Part shown: piece by piece, positions 4,809-41,886 of the stretch
Position numbering within the stretch: the stretch's first letter is position 1
How the letters are laid out: the number at the start of each line of letters is the position of its first letter
Source: Candidatus Omnitrophota bacterium
Lineage (GTDB): Bacteria; Omnitrophota; JACPQZ01
DNA: 64,000 bases
Direction of reading: 5' to 3'
Assembly: GCA_016190205.1 (NCBI GenBank)
Contig: JACPQZ010000045.1
Coordinates: forward strand, 33,923-97,922
Made by a program: the position numbers and the translations under genes
The notes under the pieces: generated by a model
The model's input: the letters and a program-made list of their open reading frames with translations, nothing else
The model's database searches: none
What the model was told of the DNA's origin: nothing

Positions 4809-4925
4809 GTTGTCTATTATAGTCTTTTGCAGAAAATAAAAAAAGCGGATCATCGCCCTTTGTGGTAATATTTTATATTGAGCGTATATAGCTCATTCTG
4901 TTTAGAAAATGGGAAAAAACTGTTA

Positions 4926-27919: not shown

Positions 27920-28420
27920 ATGATTCACGCCCTTGCGGGCTTGTTGTTCGTACCCCTTCTCATCTGTGTGCTGCCGGATGATGCCGGTGCGGCTCAATTT
28001 CCTTTTTCGGCTCGTCCCATACGGGATCATGTCCGCGTGCGGGCCGACAGTACCTTGTACAGTCCTATATTGGGCGAACTCATGGCAGATGCCCCGATTC
28101 GTGTCGTCGCAGAGCGCTGGGATTGGTACAAGATCAGCCTACCGTCAGAAATCCCTGCCTATGTCCATTCATCCTTTCTGAAGCAGATTTCGCCCACCTT
28201 AGCTCAAGTCACCGCCTCCGGAGTAAATGCACGGGCGTACGCGTCGCGCGAGGCCCCTGTGGTGGGAACCCTCTCTCATGAGGACCGGGTGGAGTACTCC
28301 GTCCAGGAGGGCGAATGGATCAAAATCAAATCCCTGCCCAAGTTCAGCGGTTACGTTCACTCGCAGTTCGTGGTGCCCATCCCGACTGCTGGAGGAGACC
28401 TTGAACATCCGCAGCGTTAA
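27920..28420 (+). CDS. Bacterial SH3 (SH3b) domain protein, two repeats
   Basis: Signal peptide. Repeated 'VRVRADSTLYSPILGELMADAPIRVVAERWDWYKI' / 'VNARAYASREAPVVGTLSHEDRVEYSVQEGEWIKI' SH3b-like modules. Confidence 0.5.
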   Translation: MIHALAGLLFVPLLICVLPDDAGAAQFPFSARPIRDHVRVRADSTLYSPILGELMADAPIRVVAERWDWYKISLPSEIPAYVHSSFLKQISPTLAQVTASGVNARAYASREAPVVGTLSHEDRVEYSVQEGEWIKIKSLPKFSGYVHSQFVVPIPTAGGDLEHPQR

Positions 28421-28871
28421 GAAAAAGGATTCCGCCCAGGTCATCAAGCTCATTCAGGACGTGGTGAACGCGGAATTTGCCCCTCAAGAGAAGGAGGCCT
28501 ATCCCATGGACGACGTGCTGGATCTGCCCGCAAGTTACCAGGGCAGGCGCGATGCCTTTTTCGTCATGAGCGACGGCCCGCAAACAATCGTCGGGACCTG
28601 TGGAGTCAAGAATGAAGGCAACGGCGTCGGCCTCATCCGGCGTGTCTTCGTCAGGCCCTCCCACAGGCGCGAGGGGGTGGCCGAGCGCCTCGTGCGGCAC
28701 TCCATACAGTTCGCAAAGAATCAGGGTTACCGAGTGCTCCAGGTCAGAACCACAAGCGCCATGAAAGCGGCGATCGCACTGCTTTACAAAGTCGGCTTCC
28801 AGGAGCGCGCCACCTTAGAGGTTGGAAGGCTCAAAATGCTTAAACTCACGTACAACTGTAAGGAGGACTGA
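28401..28871 (+). CDS. GNAT-family N-acetyltransferase
   Basis: 'TIVGTCGVK...VGLIRRVFVRPSHRREGVAERLVRHSIQFAKNQGYRVLQ' acetyl-CoA-binding motif A. A TTG start at 28401 is assumed (no in-frame ATG). Confidence 0.65.
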   Translation: MNIRSVKKKDSAQVIKLIQDVVNAEFAPQEKEAYPMDDVLDLPASYQGRRDAFFVMSDGPQTIVGTCGVKNEGNGVGLIRRVFVRPSHRREGVAERLVRHSIQFAKNQGYRVLQVRTTSAMKAAIALLYKVGFQERATLEVGRLKMLKLTYNCKED

Positions 28872-28872
28872 A

Positions 28873-29298
28873 ATGCTGCTTGTTCCAGAAATCAAACCGT
28901 ATAAAGATACCCGGCCTGTCCGGGCTATGACTGAACAGGAAATCCAGGAGAAACTGTACGGCAGGAAGGTGAATGTCCTGTCAGGCGTTCATCCGCAGTT
29001 GGCCCAGGCTAAAACCCGTATCGCTGATCTGGAGGGAGCACTCCGCGAACACGAGGCGCGCGAGAGGGGGCTTGAGACACGCATGGAGGCACTCGAGCAG
29101 GAGAAACGCGAGTTCGCGAAAAAAGCCGCCCGCGCCGAGCGGGAGCGCGATCGCCTGGACCGCAGATTGGAAGAGCTGGCAGCGCAGGCCCCTGAACGCG
29201 AACCCCGGAAGCAGCCGGCCGCGGACCTGGCGCAAGGCGCGTGGAAGAAGCTCAAGTCGTCGCTCGCACGGCTTAAGAAACCGACGGCTACACAGTAG
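28873..29298 (+). CDS. Hypothetical coiled-coil protein
   Basis: RBS AGGAGG before the ATG at 28873. Product is dominated by an E/R/A-rich heptad coiled coil. Confidence 0.3.
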   Translation: MLLVPEIKPYKDTRPVRAMTEQEIQEKLYGRKVNVLSGVHPQLAQAKTRIADLEGALREHEARERGLETRMEALEQEKREFAKKAARAERERDRLDRRLEELAAQAPEREPRKQPAADLAQGAWKKLKSSLARLKKPTATQ

Positions 29299-29301
29299 CA
29301 T

Positions 29302-30780
29302 GTGAGATACCTTCTCTCCATTGATCAGGGGACGACCGGGACACGAGCCCTGATCGTGGATATCAAGGGCCGACTCGCCGCGCAAGCTTACACCGAGTTC
29401 CCCCAATATTTTCCCCGCCCCGGCTGGGTGGAGCACGATCCACAAGAGATCTGGAACTCCACCCGGACCGTCATCCGGCAGGCACTCCTCAAAGGCCGCG
29501 TCCGCCCACAAACAATCGCAGGAATCGGGATCACCAACCAGCGCGAGACAACCGTTCTCTGGTCACGCCAAAGCGGGAAACCTCTCGGCCGCGCCATCGT
29601 GTGGCAGTGCAGGCGCTCTGCGGGCATCGTGACCTCTCTGAAGGCCCGCGGGGCGGAACCCCTATTCAGGCGCAAGACCGGCCTTGTGCTGGATGCGTAT
29701 TTTTCCGCAACCAAGATCCGCTGGGCACTCGATCATTGGGGCGGTGCGGCGCGATCAAGCCGCCGCAGGGATCTCGTCTTTGGAACCATTGACAGTTGGC
29801 TGATCTGGAAACTCTCGGGGGGGAAGGCGCATGTCACAGATCCCACCAACGCCTCACGCACCCTTCTCTACAACATCTACCGCCGCGAGTGGGATTCCGA
29901 CCTCTGCAAGATTTTAAGAATTCCCAAGTCCTGCCTTGCCCGCGTGCTTCCCTCCGCCGGCGTCTTTGCGAAAACCGGAAACGTGCGGGAGCTCTGCCCA
30001 GGCATCCCGATCACGGGCGTGGCCGGGGATCAGCAGGCATCCCTTTTTGGGCATGGATGCGTCCGGACGGGTGAGATGAAAAATACATACGGTACAGGGT
30101 GCTTCATCCTGCTCAATACCGGCAGTCATGCCCTCAAACCCAGGGCAGGGCTTCTGACCACGCTGGCCTGCGGACCCCAAGGAGAACCGGCCTACTGTCT
30201 CGAAGGCAGCATCTTCATGACGGGCGCGGTCATACAGTGGCTGAGAGACGCCCTGGGTCTCATCCAGAAGGCGTCGGATTCGGAAAAAATCGCCCGCTCT
30301 GTTAAGGACACCGGCGGGGTGTACCTGGTGCCGGCCTTTTCCGGTCTTGGGTCTCCCCACTGGAACATGTCGGCCCGCGGGGCCCTCCTGGGTCTTACGC
30401 GGGGCTCGGACCGGGGCGTGGTCGTGCGCGCAGCGCTGGAGGCCATCGCCTATCAGACCAGAGACTGTCTGGAGCGCATGCGCATGAGTATCCGGGGACG
30501 CATACGCAGACTGCGCGTGGACGGCGGGGCGGCACGAAACAACTGGCTGATGCAATTCCAGAGCGACGTCCTGGGGATTCCGGTCGAACGCGCGCGCTCC
30601 GCCCAAGTGACTGCGCTCGGCGCCGCCGCGTTGGCAGCCATCGGGGCAGGGGTTTGGAAAAATGGCGAGCCCATCAAGGGGCTTACCGGATGCGACGCGC
30701 TGTTCGTGCCACACATGAGGGCCAACGAACGGGAGCGGCTCTACTCGGGCTGGAAGCTGGCCCTGGGACGTGTCTTATGA
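29302..30780 (+). CDS. glpK: Glycerol kinase
   Basis: FGGY kinase. 'LSIDQGTTGTRALIVD', 'ITNQRETTVLW', 'FGTIDSWLIWKLSGG', 'GDQQASLFG'. GTG start. Confidence 0.9.
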   Translation: MRYLLSIDQGTTGTRALIVDIKGRLAAQAYTEFPQYFPRPGWVEHDPQEIWNSTRTVIRQALLKGRVRPQTIAGIGITNQRETTVLWSRQSGKPLGRAIVWQCRRSAGIVTSLKARGAEPLFRRKTGLVLDAYFSATKIRWALDHWGGAARSSRRRDLVFGTIDSWLIWKLSGGKAHVTDPTNASRTLLYNIYRREWDSDLCKILRIPKSCLARVLPSAGVFAKTGNVRELCPGIPITGVAGDQQASLFGHGCVRTGEMKNTYGTGCFILLNTGSHALKPRAGLLTTLACGPQGEPAYCLEGSIFMTGAVIQWLRDALGLIQKASDSEKIARSVKDTGGVYLVPAFSGLGSPHWNMSARGALLGLTRGSDRGVVVRAALEAIAYQTRDCLERMRMSIRGRIRRLRVDGGAARNNWLMQFQSDVLGIPVERARSAQVTALGAAALAAIGAGVWKNGEPIKGLTGCDALFVPHMRANERERLYSGWKLALGRVL

Positions 30781-32846
30781 GATACTTTTGGGCCGACAAG
30801 CAGGAAGGGGATGACGAAAAGGTAGCCATACTCAAGCAGGTGCCTCTCTTTTCCAACTTGAGTCAGCGGGAGCTCAAGGATATCGCCACTCCTGCCAGGC
30901 TCATCGAATACAAGAAGGATCAAGTCATTTACCAGATAGGAGATCCGCCCCACGCCTTCTTCGTCATCGCAAGCGGCAGGGTTCGAATCGACCGGCCGAC
31001 AGGCCCCAAAGGTGAGATGACGACCACCATGCTGCACGGGGGAGAGTTTTTTGGAGAGCTCTCCATCTTGACGGGAAATCCCCATTCGGCAACCGTCACG
31101 GCCAAGAACGACTGTCTGCTCCTGGAAATTGGAGGCGAAGATTTCGGGCGGCTGACCAAGGAGATCTCCGCCCTGGGTCTTTACTTCAGCCGTTTCCTCA
31201 TCCAGCGCCTGAGGGGTGTTCAGAAGGGAGATGAGTACGTTCGCGAGAGCAAGCTCATCGCCGTGTACAGTGCTGCGCGGGAGGTGGGGAAAACTGTCTT
31301 AAGCATTAACCTGGCCGCGGCCCTGGCCCGGGAGGGCGCTTCGCAGGTCATCCTGGTGGATATGGGAGGGACGAAGGGGGAGTTGGGACATCTCCTTAAA
31401 TATCCGACCGATAAGGGCCTGGTTCAGGTCGGAAGAGACCGCGCCATACATCCTGTAGGGATCCAGGAACACATCATCAAACATGATGCAGGCTTTCATA
31501 TCGTGAGCGTCGTTGAACCCGAAAAGGACGGGATTGACCCCCGCGGCATCGCACCCTTTTTCTCCTCCCTGGCCAGACAATACGACTATATCGTCATTGA
31601 TCTTCCGAACCAATTTGACGCCGCCATCCTGGAGGCCCTGCACCAGGCGGACATCCTCTTTCTTCTAACCGGGCCCCGCAGGGAAACCCTGCGCGCGACG
31701 GCGGAGATATGCGGCAAACTCAAGGCCACGATCGGCACCCAGATGGACAAGTTGAGACTACTCCTCAACCCCATGAAATTGTCCGATCCCCTGGACTTAC
31801 CTGCCAAGGAAGAGCTTTTAGGTCATCCCATCTCACTGACCCTCCCCAGCACCCCCATCGTAAAAAGCTACACGGAGTCCACAGGGATGCCGTATCTCGT
31901 CGCGAGCCCCCGGGCGGAATACAGCCGCGTCGTTCGCCGGATTGCGCGCGAGATCAGTGAGTCTATGGTCGGCCTTGCCCTGGGAAGCGGCGCGGCCCTG
32001 GGATTTGCCCATATCGGGGTGCTCAAGGTCTTCGAGCGGGAGGATATCCCCGTGGACCTTGTGGCGGGTTCCAGCATGGGCGCCTTGATCGGTGCCCTTT
32101 GGACCGCCGGAAAGACTGCCGACGAGATCGAAGGCCTGGCCCTCGATATGGCGCGTTGGCGCATCTTGAAGCTCGTTGATTTCGACTTCCCCGCGCGCGC
32201 GATCTTGAAAGGAAACCGCCTCCTGCGGTACCTCAAGACTCAACTCAAGAAAAAAACTTTTCAGGACACGCTCATCCCCCTCAAAGTCACGGCCGTAAAC
32301 CTGTACACCCGGCAGCAGGTGGTGATCGACGAAGGTCCGCTTTACGAAGCCGTGCGGGCCAGCTGCTCCATCCCGGGGCTCCTCGCCCCGTTCCGTAAGG
32401 GGGACATGTACCTTACGGACGGCGGCCTGCTGGAGCCCTGCCCGGTCCGTACCCTCATGCGGGCAAAGGTCCATAAGATTATCGCGGTCAATGTCCTTCC
32501 CAGCCCCGAAGACATGGTAGATCATCACCGCAAGCACAGGGACCTGGAGCGCGTGGAGCAGGAACGGGCCAGTCAACTTCCCCCCATGGCAAAATTCAGA
32601 TGGCGCGCGCAACAGTTTTTGAAACGAATGGTGACGCCCAGTATCGCCGAAGTCATTTTAAACAGCATGCAAACGATGGAATACCACCTGGCCCTTCAGG
32701 CCTGCGAGGACGCGGACGTTCTCATTCAGCCCATCCACTCCGGAATCCACGTCTTGAACTTTAATGAGGCCCCCCAGCTCATCGCGCGCGGAGAAGAGGA
32801 AACCTTGAAGAAACTGGACGAAATAAAGCAGCTTGTAAAGAAGTAG
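30777..32846 (+). CDS. Three-domain protein: cNMP-binding + degenerate ParA/MinD-like + patatin-like phospholipase
   Basis: cNMP-binding 'FFGELSILTG...ATVTA'. Central 'KLIAVYSAAREVGKTVLSINLAAALAREGASQVILVDMGG' (ParA-like, Walker A degenerate). Patatin 'GSGAALGFAHIGVL...GSSMGALIGALW' (GxSxG) and 'DGGLLEP' (catalytic Asp). Confidence 0.7.
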   Translation: MRYFWADKQEGDDEKVAILKQVPLFSNLSQRELKDIATPARLIEYKKDQVIYQIGDPPHAFFVIASGRVRIDRPTGPKGEMTTTMLHGGEFFGELSILTGNPHSATVTAKNDCLLLEIGGEDFGRLTKEISALGLYFSRFLIQRLRGVQKGDEYVRESKLIAVYSAAREVGKTVLSINLAAALAREGASQVILVDMGGTKGELGHLLKYPTDKGLVQVGRDRAIHPVGIQEHIIKHDAGFHIVSVVEPEKDGIDPRGIAPFFSSLARQYDYIVIDLPNQFDAAILEALHQADILFLLTGPRRETLRATAEICGKLKATIGTQMDKLRLLLNPMKLSDPLDLPAKEELLGHPISLTLPSTPIVKSYTESTGMPYLVASPRAEYSRVVRRIAREISESMVGLALGSGAALGFAHIGVLKVFEREDIPVDLVAGSSMGALIGALWTAGKTADEIEGLALDMARWRILKLVDFDFPARAILKGNRLLRYLKTQLKKKTFQDTLIPLKVTAVNLYTRQQVVIDEGPLYEAVRASCSIPGLLAPFRKGDMYLTDGGLLEPCPVRTLMRAKVHKIIAVNVLPSPEDMVDHHRKHRDLERVEQERASQLPPMAKFRWRAQQFLKRMVTPSIAEVILNSMQTMEYHLALQACEDADVLIQPIHSGIHVLNFNEAPQLIARGEEETLKKLDEIKQLVKK

Positions 32847-32872
32847 CGCAATGGGTAAACTGTTGATCAGCC

Positions 32873-34063
32873 ATGGATAAATACGTCATCATAGAAGGCG
32901 TGCGCACGCCGCAGGGGATCCTGGGCGGAGCCCTTAAAGATTTTTCGTCCGCCCGTCTGGGGGAGCTTGTCGTGCGCGGTCTCCTTCAGAAAACAAAAAT
33001 CGATCCTAAGTTAATAGAAGGGGTTATCTTTGGATGCGTAGGACAGACAAGTGATGCCCCCAACGTGGCCCGTGTCATCGCCCTTAAGGCGGGACTTCCC
33101 ATTTCCCTTCCGGGTTATACGGTTCAGCGGAACTGCGCGTCGGGCATGCAATCAATCGTCAGCGCCTGTCAGCACATAGCCGTAGGCGATGCCGACGTCC
33201 AAGTCGCGGGCGGAACAGAATCGATGAGCCAGGCGCCGTATATCAACCGGGACCTGCGGTTCGGTAAGAAACTCCGTGACTCTGCGCTGGTCGATTCCCT
33301 CTGGGAAGGTTTGACGGATCCCATCTGCGGCCAGATCATGGGGAGGACCGCAGAAAACCTGGCGGAAGAATTTAAGATTCCGCGGGCCGAGCAGGACCGT
33401 TACGCCATTGAGAGCCACGCGCGCGCCTTTCGCGCCACACGCGAAGGTAAGTTCAAGGATGAAATCGTCCCGGTCGAAATCCCTAAGAAGATGGCGGGGC
33501 GCGTGGTGCCATCAGAGATCTTTTCGGAAGACGAGGGACCCAACGTCGCGCTTACGGAACAAATGCTTTCCCAGTACCCGACGATCTTCAAGGAGGAGGG
33601 CACCGTAACGGCTGGAAACGCATGTCCCATATCTGACGGGGCGGCGTGCGTCCTCATCATGAGCGCAGAAAAGGCCAAGTCCCTGGGCCTCAAACCCATG
33701 GCATCGATCCGCGCCTGGGCCTTCGCAGCCCTCGAACCCCAGCGCATGGGCCTGGGACCCGCCTATGCCACTCCGCTCGCGCTGAAAAAAGCGGGCCTCA
33801 CGCTTGCCGACATTGATCTCATTGAAATAAACGAGGCCTTTGCCGTTCAGGTGCTCGCCTGCCGCAACATGCTGGATTTCAAACTTGAAAAAACAAATGT
33901 ACAGGGAGGCGCTATCGCCTTGGGACACCCGGTAGGAACGAGCGGGACCCGTCTCGTGATCACCCTCATGCATGAAATGAAACGCCGCGGCGCTGCCCTG
34001 GGCCTCGCAACCTTATGCGTCGGGGGCGGACAGGGATCAGCCATGATACTCGAAAGGAAGTAG
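32873..34063 (+). CDS. Acetyl-CoA C-acyltransferase (thiolase)
   Basis: 'VQRNCASGMQSIVSACQHIAVGD' (active Cys), 'NACPISDGAACVLIMS', C-terminal 'GHPVGTSGTRLVITLMHEM' and 'CVGGGQGSAMILE'. Confidence 0.85.
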   Translation: MDKYVIIEGVRTPQGILGGALKDFSSARLGELVVRGLLQKTKIDPKLIEGVIFGCVGQTSDAPNVARVIALKAGLPISLPGYTVQRNCASGMQSIVSACQHIAVGDADVQVAGGTESMSQAPYINRDLRFGKKLRDSALVDSLWEGLTDPICGQIMGRTAENLAEEFKIPRAEQDRYAIESHARAFRATREGKFKDEIVPVEIPKKMAGRVVPSEIFSEDEGPNVALTEQMLSQYPTIFKEEGTVTAGNACPISDGAACVLIMSAEKAKSLGLKPMASIRAWAFAALEPQRMGLGPAYATPLALKKAGLTLADIDLIEINEAFAVQVLACRNMLDFKLEKTNVQGGAIALGHPVGTSGTRLVITLMHEMKRRGAALGLATLCVGGGQGSAMILERK

Positions 34064-34067
34064 CCTT

Positions 34068-34195
34068 GTACGTGCATCGTACTTCGTTCATCGTGCTGCG
34101 TGGGTGGGGCGTGCAGTTCTTCGTAGTTACAGACCCTCGGCAACTGGCCTATTACCCCTTTACGATGCACGATGCACGAAGCACGAAGCACAAAC
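34068..34195. repeat. Imperfect palindromic heptamer-repeat element (GCACGAA/CGTGCAT class)
   Basis: Left arm cgtgcatcgtacttcgttcatcgtgctgcgtg, right arm cgatgcacgatgcacgaagcacgaagcac. 7-nt periodicity. Lies between the thiolase and dehydrogenase genes. Confidence 0.45.
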
Positions 34196-34219
34196 ACGGC
34201 CACCCAGAGATCAACTTGT

Positions 34220-35437
34220 ATGTACATCTATAAGACTGGCGTAGTGGGAGCCGGGGCGATGGGGGCGGAGATCGCCCAGGTCATCACCTTTGCAGGTCTC
34301 CCCGTCATCCTGCATGACATCGAGCAGCGCTTTGTGGATAAAGGCATGGAGCGCATCCGGTCCATCTACGCTCGAAGAGTGGAAAAGGGGAAGATGAGCG
34401 CTGATGAACTCGAGAAAAAGATGGCGCTCGTGACCACCACCACCCGGCTGGAAGACCTGCGGGCGGCGGACATCGTCATCGAGGCGGTCCCCGAAAAGAT
34501 GGATCTTAAAAAGCAGGTTTTTTCCAAACTTGACGGAATCCTGGGCCCTTCCGCGATCTTGGCTTCCAATACCTCCGCCCTCTCGATCTCCGCCCTAGGT
34601 TCCGCAACAAAACGCCCAGGGCGTGTCATAGGTCTGCATTTTTTCTACCCTGCGCACGTCATGAAGCTCATTGAGATCATTCCGGGACTTGCCACGTCGG
34701 ACGAGACCGTCGATGACGCGCTCGCCTTTACCGAATCTCTGCGCAAGATTCCGATTCGCGTTAACGAATGTGCCGGTTTTCTCATCAACCGCCTGCTCAT
34801 GCCGTACCTCAACGAATGTGCCTACTGCCTGGAGGAAGGTTCCGAGGGCGCCCGTGCCATCGATGAGAAAATCGTAAAATTCGGTCTGCCGATGGGCCCC
34901 TTTACGCTGGTGGACACCCTGGGGCTCGACATCTGCAAAGATGTGGGGGAAGTCCTGCACGCTTCCTACGGTGCCCGCATGCGTCCCGCCGCTCTTTGGC
35001 GCAAGCTCTTTGAAAAGAAGCGGTTCGGAATCAAGTCCGGCGCCGGTTTTTATACGTATCCCGGAGGCAAGGAGGACCCTGAACTCCAAGCGCTCGCCCA
35101 ATCTGCCGCCAGCGAAGACAAAAGCGGAAAGTCGCCCTTTGCGCTCGACCGGGTGCTCTATCAAATGATCAACGAGGCCGCCTACTGTCTGGAGGAAAGG
35201 GTCTCCACCGCCCGCGAGATCGATCTCGGCATGGTGGCCGGACTGGGTTTCCCGCAGGAGAAAGAGGGGATACTTCGTTACGCGGATTCCATCGGGCTGG
35301 ATACTGTGCTGGAGAAGCTCACATCGTATCATCATGAACTTGGAGAGCGCTTCTGGCCTGCGCCCCGCATCCGACGCATGGTGGAAGCGGGATTCCTGGG
35401 CCGGAAGACGAAGCAGGGGTTCTTTACTTACTCGTGA
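34220..35437 (+). CDS. 3-hydroxyacyl-CoA dehydrogenase (NAD-binding, duplicated C-terminal domain)
   Basis: Rossmann 'TGVVGAGAMGAEIAQV'. 'NTSALSIS' and two 3HCDH_C-like repeats. Confidence 0.85.
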   Translation: MYIYKTGVVGAGAMGAEIAQVITFAGLPVILHDIEQRFVDKGMERIRSIYARRVEKGKMSADELEKKMALVTTTTRLEDLRAADIVIEAVPEKMDLKKQVFSKLDGILGPSAILASNTSALSISALGSATKRPGRVIGLHFFYPAHVMKLIEIIPGLATSDETVDDALAFTESLRKIPIRVNECAGFLINRLLMPYLNECAYCLEEGSEGARAIDEKIVKFGLPMGPFTLVDTLGLDICKDVGEVLHASYGARMRPAALWRKLFEKKRFGIKSGAGFYTYPGGKEDPELQALAQSAASEDKSGKSPFALDRVLYQMINEAAYCLEERVSTAREIDLGMVAGLGFPQEKEGILRYADSIGLDTVLEKLTSYHHELGERFWPAPRIRRMVEAGFLGRKTKQGFFTYS

Positions 35438-35465
35438 CAACACTTGACCAAATAAGCGTGCCAAT

Positions 35466-36353
35466 ATGCTACGTTATCTTTCGATTGTTAAGAGGAAGCT
35501 CAAGTCGCATTATGGTTTCCAGCTGCTGCGTCTCGCTGCTGGCTGGAACCGCCTGAAAGGAGTCATCTTGCCTGAGGAAACCCTCGTTCAGATCCATGAC
35601 GACGAGCGCGCCCGTGTTTTAACCTTGGACCACCCCCCGGTCAACGCGCTCTCCCGTTCCCTCTTAAAGCAACTGGGGGAGGCCCTGGAAAAAACCAGGG
35701 ATGATAACCGCATTGCCGTGGTCATCATCACCGGGGCCGGCCAGAACGCCTTCGCCGCGGGCGCCGACATCCGGGAACTTGCTCTCATCCATTCCAAGGA
35801 CGAGGCGGCCCGGCTGGCCGCAGAAGGACAGACGCTCTTCAATAAGATCGAGCACTTTCCGAAACCCGTGATTGCCGCCATCAATGCAGTCTGCCTCGGG
35901 GGAGGAAATGAGCTTGCCCTGGCTTGCCACATTCGTATCGCCTCCGAACGGGCCCGCTTCGGCCAGCCTGAAGTAAATCTCGGGATCATTCCCGGCTTCG
36001 GCGGCACCCAGAGGCTCGCCAGACTCGTGGGCCTCCCCAGGGCAACAGAACTCGTCCTGACCGGCGACATAATTCCGGCCAAGGAGGCGGAGCGGATCGG
36101 TCTCATCAACAGGTCTGTGCCGGATGGAGAAGAGCTCAAGGTGGCCAAGGGAATCGCGCGAAAGATCGCCTCCAAAGGCCAAGTGGCTGTCCGGAAGGCC
36201 CTCCAGGCCCTGGTCGAGGGAAGAGAGAAATGGCTGACCGACGGCCTGGCGCTCGAGGCCTCTCTCTTTGGCGACACGACTTCTACCGACGATATGAAAG
36301 AGGGGATCCAGGCATTTTTGGAGAAGAGGCAGCCCCAATTCAAGGACCGGTGA
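35466..36353 (+). CDS. Enoyl-CoA hydratase (crotonase family)
   Basis: 'VVIITGAGQNAFAAGADIRE' and 'AINAVCLGGGNELALACHIRIAS' oxyanion-hole motifs. Start codon uncertain (no in-frame ATG early in the ORF). Confidence 0.75.
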   Translation: MLRYLSIVKRKLKSHYGFQLLRLAAGWNRLKGVILPEETLVQIHDDERARVLTLDHPPVNALSRSLLKQLGEALEKTRDDNRIAVVIITGAGQNAFAAGADIRELALIHSKDEAARLAAEGQTLFNKIEHFPKPVIAAINAVCLGGGNELALACHIRIASERARFGQPEVNLGIIPGFGGTQRLARLVGLPRATELVLTGDIIPAKEAERIGLINRSVPDGEELKVAKGIARKIASKGQVAVRKALQALVEGREKWLTDGLALEASLFGDTTSTDDMKEGIQAFLEKRQPQFKDR

Positions 36354-38176
36354 TCCCCGAAACCCACCTCGCGGCCCTCTTTTTTAACCGCGTCCAGCGC
36401 TGGCCGGACCGGCCCCTCCTTTCCTGGCGCAAAGGCGGCCATACGCTTCGCTGGACCTGGCAGGAGACCGCTGACCAGGTCACCGCCATCGCCCACTTTC
36501 TGGTAGGACTCAAAATAGGACCCCAGGAACCCTGCGGCCTTATTTCGGAGAACCGCCCCGAGTGGAGCTGGGTAGACCTGGGGGTTCTGACATCGGCAAA
36601 CTATGACGTACCGCTTTACCCGACGTCCACCTCCGAGGAAATTCTCTACTGCCTCAATGACTGCCGTGCCCGCATCCTCTTCCTCTCCAGCGAAGAACAG
36701 CTTCAGAAGATTGCCGCCGTCGAGGGATTTTTCAAGTATCTTCGTACGGTGGTGACATTTGATCCTGTCCCGGCACGCCTGAAGAAACTAAAACAGATAC
36801 TGCTTTCAGAAATCCTGAAGGAAGGGGCGCGCCTCGCAGGAGGAGGTCCCGCCGAACAGTTCTCCGGAGCGCTTGCGACGATTGAACCGCACGCCTTGGC
36901 AAGTGTGATCTACACCTCCGGCACGACGGGGACCCCGAAAGGCGTTATGCTGACCCACGACAATATTCTCTTCAACGTTGAATCATCAAGCCAGATGCTT
37001 CCTATCACTGAAGCCGATGTCTATCTCTCATTCCTGCCCTTAAACCACGTATTTGAACGCATGGCGGGTCTGTACCTCATGATGAAGCAGGGGGCTCAAA
37101 TCACCTACGTGGAAAAGCTGGATACGCTCGCTCAAGAAATTCCAATCGTGCGGCCCACCTTGATGTGCGGCGTCCCCCGCTTTTTCGAAAAAATCCAAAA
37201 CGGCATTCGGACTAAGGTGGCTCAAGGGGGCCCTGTCAAACAAAAACTCTTTCAAAGGACCCTTGATCTTGGGCGGAAGAGAGTGTGCGCCCTCGAGCGG
37301 GGCGAGGGCCTGTCATTCTTAGAGCGCCTGGAGACAGCTCTTTTAAACCGTCTGGTGGCGAGCAAGGTGAGGAGGGGGTTCGGGGGCCGCCTGCGCTTTT
37401 TTGTGAGCGGGGGAGCCGCGCTGGGCCGCGCCCTCCCAGAATTTTTTTACGCGCTGGGCCTTACCATCTTGGAAGGTTATGGACTTACCGAGACATCCCC
37501 CGTGATTACGGTAAACCGGCCGGACCGCTTTCGCTTCGGGACCGTGGGTCTCGCCATACCCGGCGTTGAGGTCAGGATCGCCCCCGACGGCGAGATCCTG
37601 ACGAGAGGGCGGCACGTCATGAAGGGCTATCTGGGACGCGAGGAAGACACGAGGGCCGTCATTGAAGACGGCTGGTTTGCTACTGGGGACATCGGACAGC
37701 TCGACAAGGATGGCTTTCTCACGATCACAGACCGCAAGAAAGACCTGATCGTTACTTCGGGGGGGAAGAAGGTCGCCCCCCAGCTCTTGGAAAATCTTCT
37801 CAAGGCCGATCCAGCCATCCTTCAGGTGCACCTCCATGGCAATGCGCGGCGCTACATGACTGCCTTGGTGGTTCCCAATTTTGAAGTGCTTGTCAAAAAG
37901 GCAGAGGAGCGATCCATAGCTTATTCCAACCCAAAAGATCTCGTCGAAAATAAGGACATTCAAAACTGGATGGCGTCATCCATCGCCGAGAGGCTTCAGG
38001 CTGTTGCCCCCTACCAAAAGATAAAGTACATCCAAATTCTTGCGGACGAATTTACCCTGGAAAAGGGGGAACTCACCCCCACCCTAAAGCTCAAGAGAAG
38101 GGTGATTGACGAACGTTACCAGAGACTCATCGATGGGATGTACCAGGATCCACCTCAAGGTATAGCCGTCCCGTGA
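36350..38176 (+). CDS. Long-chain fatty-acid--CoA ligase (AMP-binding)
   Basis: 'YTSGTTGTPKGVMLTHDNI', 'GYGLTETSP', 'GWFATGDIG...DRKKDLIV' motifs. GTG start overlapping the upstream stop. Confidence 0.8.
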   Translation: MIPETHLAALFFNRVQRWPDRPLLSWRKGGHTLRWTWQETADQVTAIAHFLVGLKIGPQEPCGLISENRPEWSWVDLGVLTSANYDVPLYPTSTSEEILYCLNDCRARILFLSSEEQLQKIAAVEGFFKYLRTVVTFDPVPARLKKLKQILLSEILKEGARLAGGGPAEQFSGALATIEPHALASVIYTSGTTGTPKGVMLTHDNILFNVESSSQMLPITEADVYLSFLPLNHVFERMAGLYLMMKQGAQITYVEKLDTLAQEIPIVRPTLMCGVPRFFEKIQNGIRTKVAQGGPVKQKLFQRTLDLGRKRVCALERGEGLSFLERLETALLNRLVASKVRRGFGGRLRFFVSGGAALGRALPEFFYALGLTILEGYGLTETSPVITVNRPDRFRFGTVGLAIPGVEVRIAPDGEILTRGRHVMKGYLGREEDTRAVIEDGWFATGDIGQLDKDGFLTITDRKKDLIVTSGGKKVAPQLLENLLKADPAILQVHLHGNARRYMTALVVPNFEVLVKKAEERSIAYSNPKDLVENKDIQNWMASSIAERLQAVAPYQKIKYIQILADEFTLEKGELTPTLKLKRRVIDERYQRLIDGMYQDPPQGIAVP

Positions 38177-39012
38177 TCACAGGGTCCTCCTGGCAAGAAG
38201 AGTGTGTTCAAGCTCCAGACGGCGGAAGGCTTTTCCAGCGCGCTCACCGAGTTGAGAACCCACAGAAAACCCTCCTCGTCATTCACGGCCTCGGGGAGCA
38301 TGGAGGCCGGTATGAACCCCTGGCGAGCATCCTGGCCCAACGCGGCATATCCACGTATTGTCCTGATTTAAGGGGTCATGGCAGGAGCCCGGGACAACGC
38401 GGACACCTCTTAAGCTGGGATACCCTCATGCAGGATGTCGGCTCCTGCCTCGCCTCAATCCAAGTTCAAGTCGCCAAAACCCCTGTAGTCATCCTCGGCC
38501 ACAGCCTGGGAGGGCTCATCGCCATCCGGTCGGCGGGGATGTTCCAGGAGCGCCTGGCTGCCCTCATCTTAAGCGCACCCTATCTGGGTCTTGCGAGACC
38601 CGTTCCTTATTCCCTGCGGCTTTTGGTGCATGCCCTCAACGCATTCGTTCCCCGTCTTCCTTTAAAAAACGGCGTTGACCCGAGAAACCTATCTCACATC
38701 GAGAGCGAGGTGAAGGCCTATCGGGAGGACCCCCTGGTGCATCCCTGGATCACACCGCGTTCCTTCACGGAGATTGAGAAGGCCATCCGGGAGGCAGCAG
38801 ACGATGCGCAGCGCATTCGTATCCCGACGCTCCTCATCTTGCCGGGCCGCGACGCCATCTGCTCAACTGCCGCCTCACTGGAGTGGTTTAAGCTCCTGCG
38901 GAGTCCGCGCAAGCAAGCAATCGTCTACCCCGAAAGCCTCCATGAGCCTCTCAATGACCTTGACCGCAACCGCTTCCTGGGTGACGTAGTCCGCTGGCTG
39001 GGTGAAATATGA
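38173..39012 (+). CDS. Alpha/beta hydrolase (lysophospholipase/monoacylglycerol lipase-like)
   Basis: 'LLVIHGLGEHGGRY' and the nucleophile elbow 'GHSLGGLIA'. Confidence 0.7.
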   Translation: MITGSSWQEECVQAPDGGRLFQRAHRVENPQKTLLVIHGLGEHGGRYEPLASILAQRGISTYCPDLRGHGRSPGQRGHLLSWDTLMQDVGSCLASIQVQVAKTPVVILGHSLGGLIAIRSAGMFQERLAALILSAPYLGLARPVPYSLRLLVHALNAFVPRLPLKNGVDPRNLSHIESEVKAYREDPLVHPWITPRSFTEIEKAIREAADDAQRIRIPTLLILPGRDAICSTAASLEWFKLLRSPRKQAIVYPESLHEPLNDLDRNRFLGDVVRWLGEI

Positions 39013-40355
39013 CCGTAGAATTTATGGACCGGTTCATGAGCTGGGTGCATGATGAGAACGCCATCTGGGTACATATGGGGCCGCAGGCGCGAGAGGCCCT
39101 CGGCATGCCCGCCTTTCAGCCTCTACCCTTTATTCGCGGCGCGTCCCTGCCTGAGCTTAAACACTGGCTTTCCGGATCCCGCCGACCGGTGCACTGCCTG
39201 CCCTATGAAGCCATGCCCCTTTTGGAAGATATGGCGCGGGAATACACCGACCTGCGCATCCTCTGCCCTCCGCAGCGCATCAAGGCCAAATTTGACGATA
39301 GGGCATTTGTCCGCGATATGCTTCCCCGCATAGGAGTCCGGACGCTTCGCGGGGAAGGCGCGCAACTGGACGTCCTTGATTTTCGTGCCTGTACAGAACA
39401 TTATGGTGTTCCGTTCGCGATTCAATTTCCATACCGCACCGGCAAAGAAGTGCATGCGGTGACCGACCCCCGAGACCTCAAGTCGCTCAAGGAAAAATTT
39501 GGCGGCATTCCCGTCCATGTTACGGTGTACGCCGCCGGCCCCTTCATCAACACGCACGCCGTCATCCTGGAAGACCGCCGGGGCCTTCACGTGCTCGCGG
39601 GCCCTCTATCTGTAGAGTTCAGAGGCAACCGCGAGACCTCCCCCGCGGGCATCACTCCTATCGGAAGTGATTTTCGGGCCATGGAAAGAATCCCCTTGGC
39701 GAGACTGATTGAAATTCAACAGCTCGCACGTCGCATCGGCAAGTGGATGGCGGAGCAGGGTTATCGGGGGCTCTACGGTGCCGATTTCTCGGTCGGCGAC
39801 CACGCGACCCTCGTTGCGCTCCGGCCCTCGTTGCAACCCTCCACTTCGCTCGTGACGCAGCTCTGTTACGAAAGGAAGGAGGCGCTTCATCTGGCCGCAC
39901 ACATGGCCCAATTTTTTCCGAGCGCCCCAAGACCCACGCCCCGGGAAAGGTCTCGTCAATATGAACTCTCCTTCGTCCCTCTTAAAGGCTCCCAGCTCAT
40001 CCTGTACAATGATGGCAGTGAAAATCTGCGTGTGACAAACTCCCTGCGGGAGGGAGTCTACCGCCCGGGGGCGGGAGCGCCCCGTTATATACGTCCGGGC
40101 GCGTCCATCTCGGAGCTCAAAGACGAACAGGAATTCCTGATCCTGTGCGGGTCACCCGGACGGGCCGAACTCTTTGACCCAGGGGCCCGGCTCATCACCC
40201 TTCAGGCCAGGACCTCGTTTTTCGCACCTGATTTGAAGAATCTTACACCCCGGTTCCGCGGGCTTTGCGACGAGCTGATCCGAACCTTAAACCCTAAACC
40301 GGAGAAAGGTCTTGTAGCGGATTCAGCACTCTTGTATACTAACAGTGATACGTAA
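39009..40355 (+). CDS. Hypothetical ATP-grasp-like protein
   Basis: 'KAKFDDRAFVRDMLPRIGVRT' (ATP-grasp linker-like), 'IPVHVTVYAAGP', 'GLYGADFSV'. About 150-aa C-terminal extension of unknown fold. Assignment tentative. Confidence 0.35.
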   Translation: MTVEFMDRFMSWVHDENAIWVHMGPQAREALGMPAFQPLPFIRGASLPELKHWLSGSRRPVHCLPYEAMPLLEDMAREYTDLRILCPPQRIKAKFDDRAFVRDMLPRIGVRTLRGEGAQLDVLDFRACTEHYGVPFAIQFPYRTGKEVHAVTDPRDLKSLKEKFGGIPVHVTVYAAGPFINTHAVILEDRRGLHVLAGPLSVEFRGNRETSPAGITPIGSDFRAMERIPLARLIEIQQLARRIGKWMAEQGYRGLYGADFSVGDHATLVALRPSLQPSTSLVTQLCYERKEALHLAAHMAQFFPSAPRPTPRERSRQYELSFVPLKGSQLILYNDGSENLRVTNSLREGVYRPGAGAPRYIRPGASISELKDEQEFLILCGSPGRAELFDPGARLITLQARTSFFAPDLKNLTPRFRGLCDELIRTLNPKPEKGLVADSALLYTNSDT

Positions 40356-40395
40356 ACAATCCGATCAGGCTAACGGCGATGCCTGACAAAATGCC

Positions 40396-41886
40396 ATGCC
40401 CCCAACATACCGTAACTATATAGACGGTAAGTGGATCCCGTCAACTTCCTGCCACGTTATCCGAGACTTAAACCCCGCTGATTTTAGAGACTGTCTGGGC
40501 GAGTTTCCCGAATCGGGACCGGATGAAATCAGCCAAGCAGTCCGCGCAGCCCACAGGGCCTTTGCATCCTGGAGACGTGTCCCCGCGCCCGCAAGGGGAG
40601 AATTCGTGGCGCGCTGGGGGGAGCTCATTGCGCGCGATGAGGAAGCGCTCGCCCGCCTCATTACGATGGAAAACGGCAAGACGCTTCAGGAATCGAAAAG
40701 CGAAGTGAAGGAGGCCTTCGACTTCGCACGCTTCATGAGCGCCCAGGCCCGCCTCATCGAAGGGTCCACATTTCCTTCTCAGCATGAACGTCGTCTGCTC
40801 ATGACGTTAAGACAGCCTGTCGGCGTGACGGCCCTGATCACCCCCTGGAATTTTCCGATTCTGATACCCTGCTGGAAGCTGTTTCCAGCCCTCATCTGCG
40901 GCAATACCGTTATCCTCAAGCCTGCTGAAGAGTGCCCGCTCGCAGCCCACCGCCTGGTTGAACTCGCCGCCGAGGCGGGCCTCGCGCCCGGGGTAGTCAA
41001 CTTGATACATGGCTCCGGAGAGGGGACCGGGCGGACCCTCGTCAAACACCCCGGAGTGGCCCTCGTATCCTTCACCGGCTCTACAGAAACGGGCCGCCGG
41101 ATTGCCCAAGAGTGTGCGCTCAGCCTCAAGCGCCACGTCCTCGAGCTGGGCGGCAAAAACGCGCAGATCGTGCTCGCAGACGCGGATCTTACGGAAGCAG
41201 TCGAGGGGGCCGTCGTCGGGGCTTACAAAACGACAGGCCAGCGCTGTACGGCAACCAGCCGAATCATTGTGGAACAGACCGTAGCCGGCTCATTCAGTGA
41301 ACGCTTTCTGGAACGCACGAAACAGATACGCGTGGGTAACGGGCTCGACGCGAATGTCGACATGGGCCCGCTGGTCAGCGAATCCAGGCGCAAGCGGGTC
41401 CACGCCTATGTCGAAGCGGGACGGCGGGAGGGGGCCCATTTGCTTCTGGGCGGTTACTTCTACGAGAGCGAGCCGTTGGCCCAGGGCGCCTTTTATCCCC
41501 CTACGGTGTTTGACTCGGTCAAACCCGGTATGGCCATCGCCCGGGAGGAAATCTTCGGGCCCGTAATCTGCCTCATGGAAGCGGAAGATCTCGAGGCGGC
41601 CCTATTAGACTTAAACAATAACCCCTACGGACTTTCCGCCTCCGTCTATACCAGTAACATGCACACGGCGCTCGAGGCAGTGGAGCGCATTGAGGCGGGT
41701 CTCGTGTACATCAACAGCCCAACCACGGGATCGGAGCTCCATATGCCTTTTGGCGGGGTAAAGGCAACGGGTGACGGACACCGCGAGGCGGGCCGCTACG
41801 GCTTGAACATTTTCAGCGAGTGGAAAAGCGCGTATATCAACTATGGGCGGCGCGTCTCAAGGGTCGAGCTTCAAACCCCTGCATGA
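40396..41886 (+). CDS. NAD(P)-dependent aldehyde dehydrogenase
   Basis: 'ITPWNFP', 'ELGGKNAQIV' (catalytic Glu), 'GQRCTATSRIIV' (catalytic Cys), 'EEIFGPV'. Confidence 0.85.
   Translation: MPPTYRNYIDGKWIPSTSCHVIRDLNPADFRDCLGEFPESGPDEISQAVRAAHRAFASWRRVPAPARGEFVARWGELIARDEEALARLITMENGKTLQESKSEVKEAFDFARFMSAQARLIEGSTFPSQHERRLLMTLRQPVGVTALITPWNFPILIPCWKLFPALICGNTVILKPAEECPLAAHRLVELAAEAGLAPGVVNLIHGSGEGTGRTLVKHPGVALVSFTGSTETGRRIAQECALSLKRHVLELGGKNAQIVLADADLTEAVEGAVVGAYKTTGQRCTATSRIIVEQTVAGSFSERFLERTKQIRVGNGLDANVDMGPLVSESRRKRVHAYVEAGRREGAHLLLGGYFYESEPLAQGAFYPPTVFDSVKPGMAIAREEIFGPVICLMEAEDLEAALLDLNNNPYGLSASVYTSNMHTALEAVERIEAGLVYINSPTTGSELHMPFGGVKATGDGHREAGRYGLNIFSEWKSAYINYGRRVSRVELQTPA

Follow-up and report, generated by a model that had tools for sequence, protein, structure and literature searches.

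We describe a gene of Candidatus Omnitrophota, read within a window of 64,000 nucleotides (the whole stretch of DNA that was analysed), whose 689-aa product joins a cyclic-nucleotide-binding (CNB) fold, a decayed MinD/CpaE-like P-loop domain and a patatin acyl-hydrolase domain (Table 1). Its kind is known, that of the bacterial NTE-like CNB-patatin proteins, and the protein is a variant of them. Since the gene repeatedly heads a fatty-acid breakdown cluster in Omnitrophota, the product is most likely an intracellular lipase that is regulated and works in lipid catabolism, and we give somewhat better than an even chance to a reading in which a lipid acyl-hydrolase of the cytoplasm, under allosteric control, serves as entry enzyme of a lipid-catabolic operon.

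Table 1. Features of the gene, its product and the neighbouring cluster (positions in the window; residues of the 689-aa protein).
Feature	Positions	Strand	Basis or remark
glpK, glycerol kinase	29302..30780	+	TIGR01311 633 bits (cutoff 590); upstream, translationally coupled
Whole gene, CNB / MinD-like pseudo-ATPase / patatin protein, 689 aa	30777..32846	+	ORF, Pfam, NCBIfam
CNB-fold sensor, residues 15-147	30819..31217	+	β-barrel plus B and C helices
Phosphate-binding cassette (PBC) FGELSILTGNPHSATVTA, residues 92-109	31050..31103	+	Aligned in register with CNB domains of PKA and Toxoplasma
Flexible linker VQKGDEY, residues 148-154	31218..31238	+	pLDDT; CNB C-helix to central domain
MinD/ParA/CpaE-like P-loop fold, residues 155-395	31239..31961	+	Putative pseudo-ATPase scaffold or relay
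Walker A remnant SAAREVGKT, residues 165-173	31269..31295	+	Alignment to MinD SGKGGTGKT
Switch I VILVDMGGTK, residues 191-200	31347..31376	+	Alignment to MinD
Walker B-like YDYIVIDLPNQ, residues 269-279	31581..31613	+	Alignment to MinD FDFILIDCPAG
Patatin (RssA/PlpD-like) acyl-hydrolase plus C-terminal helical extension, residues 397-689	31965..32843	+	
Gly-rich oxyanion motif GSGAALG, residues 403-409	31983..32003	+	Alignment to PlpD (GGAARG)
Nucleophile elbow GSSMG, residues 431-435; Ser433 catalytic	32067..32081	+	Alignment to PlpD GTSMG
DGG, residues 548-550; Asp548 catalytic acid/base	32418..32426	+	Conservation
Thiolase, acetyl-CoA C-acyltransferase	32873..34063	+	TIGR01930 472 bits (cutoff 240); downstream in 7 loci
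3-Hydroxyacyl-CoA dehydrogenase (HADH), like C-terminal half of FadB/FadJ	34217..35437	+	Conserved, 11 loci
Enoyl-CoA hydratase (ECH)	35466..36353	+	
Fatty-acid-CoA ligase, FadD11-like	36230..38176	+	Conserved in 7 loci
α/β-hydrolase	38173..39012	+	Pfam Hydrolase_4, E 1.3e-61; 6 loci; last conserved cluster member

The open reading frame lies where the sequence-only reading had placed it, with an ATG at 30777 that shares the sequence ATGA with the glpK stop and a TAG at 32844-32846. Domain scans with Pfam and NCBIfam bore out the proposed order of cNMP-binding, ParA-like and patatin domains, and the Walker A remnant, GSSMG and DGG motifs quoted at that time were all found. Three features were absent from that reading: the replacement of the PBC Arg by His, that of the Arg of the Gly-rich motif by Leu, and the descent of the central domain from the CpaE/TadZ type. 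NCBI lists an identical protein under the title 'patatin-like phospholipase family protein [Candidatus Omnitrophica bacterium]', and homologues carry the JGI label 'NTE family protein'. PDB sequence matches comprise PlpD, the CNB domains of PKA-R, PKG and MloK1, the ParA-family entry 3ea0 and MinD (1g3q/1ion). No signal peptide or transmembrane segment was found in the protein. The family has at least 120 full-length homologues, nearly all from Candidatus Omnitrophota, and residue counts given here refer to a set of 120. Acidobacteriota have tri-domain relatives at a greater distance, and a Leptospira homologue exists outside any β-oxidation context. Within its one phylum the gene seems to have been inherited vertically and keeps its synteny, and in a rough NJ tree the loci with β-oxidation context form a basal grade of the Omnitrophota family.

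The location between glpK and a β-oxidation block had been noted from the sequence, with a lipid-catabolic role as an alternative, and both points gained strength: GlpK scores above its TIGR01311 cutoff, and 11 loci, with homologues that share 34-41% identity with the window protein, show the order gene-(thiolase)-HADH-ECH-acyl-CoA ligase-α/β-hydrolase. The block lies directly 3' of the gene in the window and in L001, L002, L003, L010, L081, L082, L084 and L085, and adjoins it in L016, L023 and L024. Within the window the cluster genes are on one strand and tightly packed or overlapping. HADH is fused to ECH in FadB style in L084 and L085, GlpK is upstream in the window and L003 only, and no acyl-CoA dehydrogenase is encoded in the cluster. 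The true start of the ligase is probably downstream of 36230, because its Pfam match begins at residue 51, and the α/β-hydrolase is of monoacylglycerol-lipase or lysophospholipase type, its NCBIfam matches being weak. The recurrence of this cluster points to a role in lipid catabolism and away from one in defence. Among informative Omnitrophota loci, those classed as type B or 'other', about half of the total, lack the β-oxidation context, and small PilZ proteins are encoded directly upstream in about ten loci. In a set of about 30 loci, conservation next to the gene extends to β-oxidation enzymes, acyl-CoA ligase, α/β-hydrolase and PilZ, or to housekeeping genes; none of these loci has a cyclase or CD-NTase adjacent to the gene, and no nucleotide cyclase was found among the scanned window ORFs. 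Pilus, flagellar and division genes are likewise absent near the gene, and its GC content bears no island signature.

The patatin domain matches Pfam Patatin over residues 400-560 (E 6e-29), passing the PF01734 gathering threshold with the α/β fold, and NCBIfam RssA over residues 397-688 (E 7e-50, profile positions 5-298 of 301). The latter score, 169.8 bits, stays under the curated cutoff of 272 bits for RssA (NF007623); an RssA equivalog was therefore rejected, and the domain is only related to it. Ser433 and Asp548, which lie here in GxSxG and D-G-[GA] motifs, are each invariant (120/120), so that the dyad first read as intact is kept throughout the family, and the domain appears catalytically competent from its motifs. 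Its oxyanion loop differs from the usual pattern. The Gly residues are invariant among the 120 homologues, and Leu408 stands in place of the Arg/Lys of GGGxR/KG, leaving the motif without its cationic residue; position 408 is L in 87, F in 17, Y in 4, M in 3, W in 3 and R in 2. The patatin/iPLA2 motif is GGGR, while the triacylglycerol lipases ATGL and SDP1 have GXGXXG with no cationic residue (PMC10291501, PMC12871566, PMC4016141), a pattern that GSGAALG fits. By analogy with ATGL-type lipases, Leu in place of the cationic residue suggests a neutral substrate, or at least one whose recognition does not depend on its phosphate; acylglycerols or similar esters would be candidates.

The central domain is a SIMIBI-class module by both its MinD-like fold and its HMM similarity, with matches to Pfam AAA_31 (residues 159-296, E 3.4e-7, 30.8 bits, cutoff 27), NCBIfam minD_bact (residues 159-376, E 2.6e-10) and the CpaE homologue Ssd (residues 142-371, E 6.6e-8). 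It is the least conserved module family-wide, with a mean pairwise identity of 31%. The degenerate Walker A reported from the sequence proved to be decayed across the family. Here the signature Lys has become Ala167 and the Gly-Gly pair Arg168-Glu169; GKT is kept, and the loop still fits the generic [AG]x4GK[ST] though not the deviant K-G-G-x-G-K-[ST]. Among homologues the signature Lys survives in 1 of 120, and position 172, that of the P-loop Lys, is R in 69, K in 13, Q in 12, S in 9 and C in 7, with GK[ST] in 13/120. Gly197 occupies the position of the MinD catalytic Asp (Asp40 equivalent), where Asp occurs in only 4/120. The earlier view of a non-catalytic ParA-like domain is thus supported. 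Asp195, the first switch I Asp, and the Walker B Asp275 are present here and in 92 and 105 of the 120 homologues, respectively. Since GKT, Asp195 and Asp275 are retained together in the 689-aa protein and its closest relatives (8/120), the central domain of this subclade may bind nucleotide. KGGxGK[ST] occurs in none of 26 fusions, against 73 of 120 non-fused relatives. The closest of the latter are REC + ATPase proteins of CpaE/TadZ type with an intact STKGGVGKT, and the combination of a sensor with a MinD-like domain is therefore a pre-existing signalling module.

The sensor matches Pfam cNMP_binding over residues 43-128 (E 5.5e-21), above the PF00027 gathering threshold, and has the β-barrel and helices of the CNB fold. 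Its C-helix (residues 131-147) runs into the central domain through the linker, where pLDDT falls below 50 in an otherwise confident model. Most of the cassette is well kept, with FGE..L....P-x-S-A-T in register. When the cassette is aligned with CNB domains of PKA and Toxoplasma, His103 (31083-31085) falls on the canonical PBC Arg position, and His is found there in 120/120 homologues. The PBC Glu that contacts the ribose 2'-OH is kept here (Glu94) and in 66/120, and is replaced by I, M or V in 45%. The PBC Arg and PBC Glu of a functional cAMP/cGMP receptor are therefore not found together. The Acidobacteriota relatives retain the Arg, in FGEMALLQGGKRTATV, and their cassette is fully canonical. 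With His invariant at the Arg position, canonical cAMP/cGMP switching is doubtful, and in that sense the proposed second-messenger control of the lipase is not supported. A His can still hydrogen-bond phosphate and so leave cNMP binding possible, yet the ligand is probably not canonical cAMP or cGMP.

In the mechanism that we favour, the patatin domain, through Ser433/Asp548 and the oxyanion loop, would release fatty acids from a glycerolipid. These would pass to the co-encoded fatty-acid-CoA ligase, ECH, HADH and thiolase, leftover acyl chains would be taken off by the Hydrolase_4 α/β-hydrolase, and glycerol would go to GlpK in this genome. Activity would be set by the CNB-fold sensor, with ligand moving the C-helix and, through the short linker, the MinD/CpaE-like domain. 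The central domain, its ATPase capability presumably lost, would serve as a rigid relay and would probably also provide a platform on which the patatin domains dimerise. Patatin enzymes are commonly regulated by dimerisation or by a partner protein (PMC12871566).

Other explanations were weighed against this lipase. A canonical cAMP/cGMP-activated phospholipase A or lysophospholipase with membrane phospholipids as substrate, the model put forward for NTE/Swiss-cheese, seems to us unlikely, although the CNB fold is well supported, the cassette is otherwise well kept and RssA is the best NCBIfam match of the patatin domain. Mutation of the CNB sites abolishes Swiss-cheese function (PMC12710771), and the canonical PBC of the Acidobacteriota relatives makes it plausible that the ancestral architecture was under cNMP control. 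Against it speak the loss of the phosphate-clamping Arg in every homologue and of the ribose-binding Glu in many, the hydrophobic residue at position 408 in 114/120, and the lack of cyclases noted above; moreover, a review sees no evidence for direct binding of cNMP to PNPLA6, so that such binding is unproven for NTE too (PMC10291501). An enzyme of membrane-lipid homeostasis (an RssA/NTE-like lysophospholipase or phospholipase B) is equally improbable in our judgement. It would explain the β-oxidation link as acyl-chain recycling and the central domain as a sensor of the ATP energy state in the GKT subclade. The RssA-like match does span the full patatin domain, the type B loci, devoid of catabolic neighbours, fit a housekeeping role, and GK[ST], Asp195 and Asp275 are kept in the window protein and its nearest relatives. 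Binding of ATP without turnover is reported for TadZ-type relatives, a further point for ATP sensing. As most homologues are without the P-loop Lys, however, ATP sensing cannot be the conserved mechanism of the family; the lost cationic residue speaks against recognition of a phosphate head group, and an operon that also encodes a fatty-acid-CoA ligase, another lipase-type hydrolase and, here, GlpK resembles complete glycerolipid catabolism.

Far less probable still is an anti-phage effector of CBASS/Pycsar type, in which the patatin would destroy membranes and the CNB domain would sense a cyclic (oligo)nucleotide alarm. The likeness to nucleotide-gated patatin effectors drawn in the sequence-only reading holds at domain level and goes no further. 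PADLOC matches are to single domains (E 1e-5 to 1e-8) and fall well short of family level, as does the match to NCBIfam CBASS_lipase (E 0.16). Of the two marks of CBASS CapV or Pycsar members, neither a family-level HMM match nor, in about 30 related loci, linkage to a cyclase was found. Metabolic, PilZ or housekeeping neighbours, apparently vertical spread with conserved synteny and unremarkable GC are not the patchy pattern of defence islands.

Among known systems, NTE/Swiss-cheese/PNPLA6-7 and the bacterial 'NTE family' (for example M. tuberculosis Rv2565 and Rv3728) likewise carry CNB N-terminal to patatin with the GxSxG/DGG dyad. NTE has three CNB domains, whereas the 689-aa protein has one and no transmembrane segment; here a MinD/CpaE-like pseudo-ATPase of about 240 aa lies between sensor and esterase, and the invariant His, GSGAALG for GGGxRG and the β-oxidation operon are further differences. 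The mycobacterial proteins are still classed as hypothetical lipolytic enzymes (PMC10865251). RssA and PlpD have GxGAARG where the 689-aa protein has Leu for Arg, lack N-terminal sensor or MinD-like modules, and PlpD, unlike our protein, is secreted or autotransported. CpaE/TadZ, MinD, FleN/FlhG and BcsQ relatives mostly keep KGGxGK[ST]; CpaE/TadZ has a receiver sensor, in contrast to the CNB sensor and appended lipase described here, which have no pilus, flagellar or division genes nearby. With CBASS CapV/CapE and Pycsar the shared idea is a patatin lipase or CNB-fused effector under a nucleotide-type ligand. CapV/CapE become active on forming oligomers or filaments (entry titles 9ion, 9kej), a precedent for assembly-driven patatin activation, but they bind the signal in the patatin protein itself, have no CNB and are cyclase-adjacent in defence islands. 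ATGL/PNPLA2 and plant SDP1 are intracellular patatin-domain lipases that initiate storage or neutral-lipid catabolism. Control of ATGL lies with partner proteins (CGI-58, G0S2) rather than fused domains; our patatin domain is of the bacterial RssA subtype, has no evident lipid-droplet targeting region and shows very low similarity to ATGL in a pairwise comparison (24% identity, E 0.022), with Leu408 opposite the Leu of G-C-G-F-L-G.

Taking the favoured lipase one step further, the CNB domain with its invariant His may be a receptor for a ligand other than cAMP or cGMP, and the decayed MinD/CpaE-like domain may respond to its signal by promoting an assembly that switches on an ATGL-like neutral-lipid lipase, a proposal that we advance only tentatively and consider rather unlikely as a whole. 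Candidate ligands would be a lipid-derived metabolite (acyl-CoA, fatty acid) or a non-cyclic nucleotide; alternatively, c-di-GMP may be the input, passed on by the small PilZ proteins that some loci encode upstream. If true, the proposal would mean that intracellular lipolysis in bacteria is controlled by a previously undescribed mechanism, here in Omnitrophota, a largely uncultured and possibly host-dependent phylum.

We conclude that the tri-domain lipase is probably a regulated lipid acyl-hydrolase. Fatty acids released by its patatin domain would be passed to the enzymes of fatty-acid activation and β-oxidation encoded beside it, the remaining deacylation would fall to the Hydrolase_4 enzyme and, in the window genome, the glycerol would be captured by GlpK. 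The gene starts at an ATG that overlaps the stop codon of the upstream gene as ATGA. This start is favoured over an in-frame TTG at 30654 because the consensus N-terminus of the homologues (M-x8-DK-x3-L-x3-PLF) agrees with it; the TTG, which would give 730 aa and falls within glpK, was rejected. All three domains exceed the Pfam gathering thresholds, bearing out the architecture proposed by the sequence-only reading, and the motifs that it quoted (SAAREVGKT, GSSMG and DGG) are all present in the protein. A PDB sequence search matched PlpD, many cyclic-nucleotide-binding (CNB) domains of PKA, PKG and MloK1, the ParA-family protein 3ea0 and archaeal MinD, and fold searches retrieved each of the three domains separately. 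An AlphaFold2 model, computed from an alignment of 120 family sequences, reached a mean pLDDT of 89.5, with values below 50 only at residues 1-7 and in the linker 148-154, and its high pTM (0.81) suggests a defined inter-domain arrangement. The protein carries neither a signal peptide nor a transmembrane segment and is therefore predicted to be cytoplasmic.

Features of the tri-domain lipase, its gene cluster and related loci (L handles denote genomic loci encoding homologues, with coordinates within that locus)
Feature	Position	Strand	Remarks
Tri-domain lipase gene	window, ATG 30777 to TAG 32844-32846	+	689 aa
cNMP_binding	residues 43-128		Pfam E 5.5e-21
AAA_31	residues 159-296		Pfam 30.8 bits, cutoff 27
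Patatin	residues 400-560		Pfam E 6.1e-29
RssA	residues 397-688		NCBIfam E 7e-50, under equivalog cutoff
minD_bact	residues 159-376		NCBIfam E 2.6e-10
CpaE homologue Ssd			NCBIfam match E 6.6e-8
glpK	directly upstream of tri-domain gene	+	TIGR01311, above curated cutoff
Thiolase	downstream of tri-domain gene	+	TIGR01930, above cutoff
3-Hydroxyacyl-CoA dehydrogenase (HADH)	after thiolase	+	
Enoyl-CoA hydratase (ECH)	after HADH	+	Pfam match only from about residue 41-51 of its ORF onwards
FadD11-like fatty-acid-CoA ligase	after ECH	+	
Hydrolase_4 α/β-hydrolase	after ligase	+	
CNB-less paralogues	L018:3365-4915, L020:8707-10197, L023:1811-3346, L024:5036-6538		decayed MinD-like + patatin
Leptospira ilyithenensis homologue	L046:9983-11704		574 aa, cultured genus
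PilZ genes	L001:7049-7414, L002:3689-4069, L003:657-1049, L004:9570-9914, L010:9402-9788, L017:2937-3359		
Further PilZ genes	L081, L084, L085 (upstream); L082 (downstream)		

From glpK through Hydrolase_4 the window genes form a series on one strand, overlapping or closely packed. The block (thiolase)-HADH-ECH-ligase-Hydrolase_4 directly follows the homologues in L001, L002, L003, L010, L081, L082, L084 and L085, whose proteins are 34-41% identical to that of the window; L084 and L085 carry ECH and HADH as a FadB-style fusion. In L016 the block adjoins the gene, as it does the two-domain paralogues of L023 and L024. GlpK lies upstream in the window and L003 only. Another seven loci share a different arrangement: upstream lie chorismate synthase and an SDR, downstream a cupin. 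Several further loci show unrelated neighbours. In a rough NJ tree, rooted on Acidobacteriota and without support values, the lipid-catabolic loci form a basal grade and the other contexts one derived clade, which suggests that the catabolic linkage may be ancestral within Omnitrophota. There is no acyl-CoA dehydrogenase in the cluster, and a promoter and terminator scan of 28300-42200 gave counts at chance level, uninformative on operon boundaries. A butyrate-fermentation reading of the thiolase, HADH and ECH is less likely, given that the acyl-CoA ligase is of long-chain type, that two hydrolases are of lipase type and that ECH and HADH occur in FadB-style fusions.

The acyl-CoA ligase ORF overlaps the 3' end of the ECH gene by 124 nt (window 36230-36353, +), and its Pfam match begins at residue 51, so the real start probably lies further downstream. 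Beyond Hydrolase_4, whose stop overlaps its start, a 448-aa ORF (39009-40355, +) has no Pfam or NCBIfam match and is not kept beside the cluster at other loci; it was left out of the system. An aldehyde dehydrogenase follows at 40396-41886. Elsewhere in the window, an 816-aa protein (44990-47440, +) joins a domain of the sodium:alanine symporter family (60-446) to an aminomethyltransferase, the T-protein of glycine cleavage (452-804), in an unusual transporter-enzyme fusion, and glycine-cleavage P-protein subunits come after it (47833-50681).

The family set comprises at least 120 homologues, the 120 listed being 33-56% identical to the query over about 98% of its length, and the named members among them are almost exclusively Omnitrophica/Omnitrophota. 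Precomputed cNMP_binding and Patatin matches occur in all 120 of these, and AAA_31 as well in 63. Within the patatin domain, Ser433 (G-S-S-[IM]-G) and Asp548 (D-G-G) are invariant among the listed homologues, which predicts a catalytically competent enzyme. The family's Gly-rich oxyanion motif reads G-[SG]-G-A-A-x-G. At the position of the Arg/Lys in the classical GGGxR/KG, the listed homologues have Leu (87), Phe (17), Tyr/Met/Trp (10) and Arg in only 2; PlpD reads GGAARG at the aligned position. Patatin and iPLA2β carry a "Gly-Gly-Gly-Arg" motif, and the triacylglycerol lipases ATGL (Gly14-Gly19) and SDP1 carry GXGXXG (PMC10291501, PMC12871566, PMC4016141), so that the tri-domain family shares with the latter a Gly-rich motif without a cationic residue. 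A pairwise BLASTP against the catalytic region of human ATGL, with an E value of only 0.022, paired Leu408 with the Leu of G-C-G-F-L-G and aligned GxSxG and DGG as well. By analogy with ATGL and SDP1, the missing cationic residue would point to a substrate that is neutral or not recognised through phosphate.

The central domain is the least conserved of the three: its mean pairwise identity is 31%, whereas the CNB domain reaches 44% and the patatin core 52%. Its P-loop reads S-A-A-R-E-V-G-K-T here vs S-G-K-G-G-T-G-K-T in MinD. The sequence-only reading had called this ParA-like domain degenerate and non-catalytic, a claim that gains strength at family level: among the listed homologues the signature Lys position holds Lys in 1/120 and the P-loop Lys position in 13 (Arg 69, Gln 12, Ser 9, Cys 7). 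The equivalent of the MinD catalytic switch-I Asp, Gly197 in the window protein, is Asp in 4/120; the Walker B Asp is kept in 105/120 and the first switch-I Asp in 92/120. GK[ST] and both Asp persist in 8/120, including the window protein and its closest relatives; judging from these motifs, nucleotide binding is conceivable in this subclade and ATP hydrolysis by the central domain unlikely. The closest solved relative of the central domain, PDB 3ea0 from Chlorobium tepidum, has a P-loop (KGGDGGS) without the P-loop Lys, so the canonical Walker A has been lost elsewhere too in this MinD/CpaE-like branch.

When 1.84 billion representatives were searched exhaustively by phmmer with residues 150-396 as query, 4033 matches were obtained at E ≤ 1e-3 (486 at E ≤ 1e-10), with about 25 tri-domain proteins (~680 aa) first and then mostly proteins of ~370-430 aa in which the domain spans residues ~130-380. 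The shorter relatives that were examined combine Response_reg with AAA_31/CbiA/ParA and an intact STKGGVGKT, as in the CpaE/TadZ type, one of them with a TadZ_N match. KGGxGK[ST] is found in 73/120 non-fused relatives vs 0/26 fusions of at least 600 aa. An N-terminal sensor followed by a MinD-like domain is thus a pre-existing signalling layout. Judged by these comparisons, the tri-domain family has a CNB fold where the CpaE/TadZ type has a receiver, carries an added lipase and has decayed ATPase motifs. MinD/ParA/TadZ folds are dimerisation devices. Patatin enzymes, in turn, are often controlled through binding of a partner, through dimers or through filaments (PMC12871566), and CapE and CapV filament entries were among the fold-search matches. 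Since MinD-type folds dimerise and patatins are often switched in these ways, the central domain is most plausibly a hydrolysis-dead relay or a putative dimerisation scaffold.

When the phyletic distribution of the architecture was followed up, it proved mostly Omnitrophota, with distant relatives in Acidobacteriota. A species-representative genome scan yielded about 25 loci of full length in MAGs of Omnitrophota (a few of these labelled Planctomycetia/-ales) and four Acidobacteriota relatives, in which the central domain between CNB and patatin matches a family-derived HMM weakly (E 1e-6 to 1e-10). Proteins of Leptospira ilyithenensis and Ardenticatenia have CNB and patatin domains around a shorter, unmatched linker. 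Four Omnitrophota paralogues have the central and patatin domains only, so the pseudo-ATPase-lipase pair can probably work without the sensor; those in L023 and L024 directly follow ECH-HADH genes. The Leptospira protein has a His-type phosphate-binding cassette (PBC; FGIHSLLTGEDHSH) and a GGGAALG patatin motif. It is only a partial cultured proxy: no match to the central-domain HMM of the family was obtained for its ~190-aa linker, and the genes around it encode RecN, a YceI-like protein and a DUF5777 β-barrel and none of the β-oxidation enzymes.

Regarding the sensor, the C-helix is the element that moves upon ligand binding in CNB proteins. In the AlphaFold2 model this helix (131-147) is joined directly to β1 of the MinD-like domain by a flexible linker of 7 residues, an anatomy from which regulation by the sensor may be proposed. 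The sequence-only reading envisaged a lipase switched by a second messenger. In its canonical form, a phospholipase switched by cAMP or cGMP, this model is weakened and becomes less likely. The PBC FGELSILTGNPHSATVTA can be placed in register with the CNB domains of PKA and Toxoplasma, and His103 occupies the exact position of the Arg that clamps the cyclic phosphate, and His stands there in 120/120 listed homologues. The ribose-contacting Glu is likewise variable, being present in only 66/120 and otherwise replaced by Ile, Met or Val. The lack of a cationic patatin residue and of a linked cyclase also stands against it, no nucleotide cyclase being seen among the window ORFs scanned and related loci. 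Control by cAMP or cGMP is plausible for the Acidobacteriota relatives, which retain the textbook PBC FGEMALLQGG[KT]RTATV.

A defence effector of the CBASS/Pycsar kind was rejected: the PADLOC matches are single-domain only, the NCBIfam CBASS_lipase profile gives E 0.16, about 30 neighbourhoods hold no cyclase, and the synteny is metabolic and conserved across the phylum. A housekeeping enzyme of membrane-lipid turnover with residual ATP sensing is a reasonable alternative to the regulated acyl-hydrolase feeding β-oxidation, and it fits best the type-B loci, which have no catabolic neighbours.

About 10 Omnitrophota loci have small single-domain PilZ genes (110-140 aa, one to three per locus) directly upstream of the tri-domain gene. 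In the window PilZ is absent from this position, which is taken by a 158-aa ORF without a Pfam match and glpK. Input of c-di-GMP to the MinD-like domain through PilZ adaptors is possible. The window also encodes two HD-GYP-type (HD_5) proteins, one with PAS, and a PilZ-HEAT repeat protein (4878-6251, 43546-44649 and 57587-58849, +), and thus a dense c-di-GMP signalling repertoire.

The tri-domain protein is not categorically new: its domains are known, the MinD-like and patatin folds being each ordinary, the CNB-patatin pairing is in common with NTE/Swiss-cheese, and an identical sequence already stands in NCBI with a generic title ([quoted passage not shown]). Rv2565 and Rv3728 are predicted bacterial CNB-patatin proteins still listed as hypothetical (PMC10865251), and the role of the NTE CNB sites is only now under study (PMC12710771). 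Literature searches on the tri-domain architecture, Omnitrophota lipid catabolism and Rv2565/Rv3728 found no description of a CNB-MinD-like-patatin protein, nor of an inserted, decayed CpaE/MinD-type domain combined with an invariant-His PBC, an ATGL-like Gly-rich motif and a conserved β-oxidation operon. How lipolysis within the cell is regulated is well understood for eukaryotes (ATGL with CGI-58/G0S2; NTE) and poorly for bacteria, and to our knowledge bacterial CNB-patatin proteins, mycobacterial included, are uncharacterised.

The family constitutes a compact, self-contained case, with sensor, relay and lipase in one chain genetically tied to fatty-acid activation and β-oxidation, and a good candidate for the biochemistry of bacterial lipolysis control and of pseudo-ATPase relays. 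It bears on whether a MinD/CpaE-class pseudo-ATPase can be an allosteric or dimerisation relay for an enzyme, on the ligand of a CNB pocket in which His replaces the phosphate-clamping Arg, and on whether loss of the cationic residue of the Gly-rich motif marks neutral-lipid specificity in bacterial patatins. Omnitrophota are mostly uncultured, some being suspected of a host-dependent or predatory life, and the tri-domain lipase also bears on how they obtain carbon from lipids.
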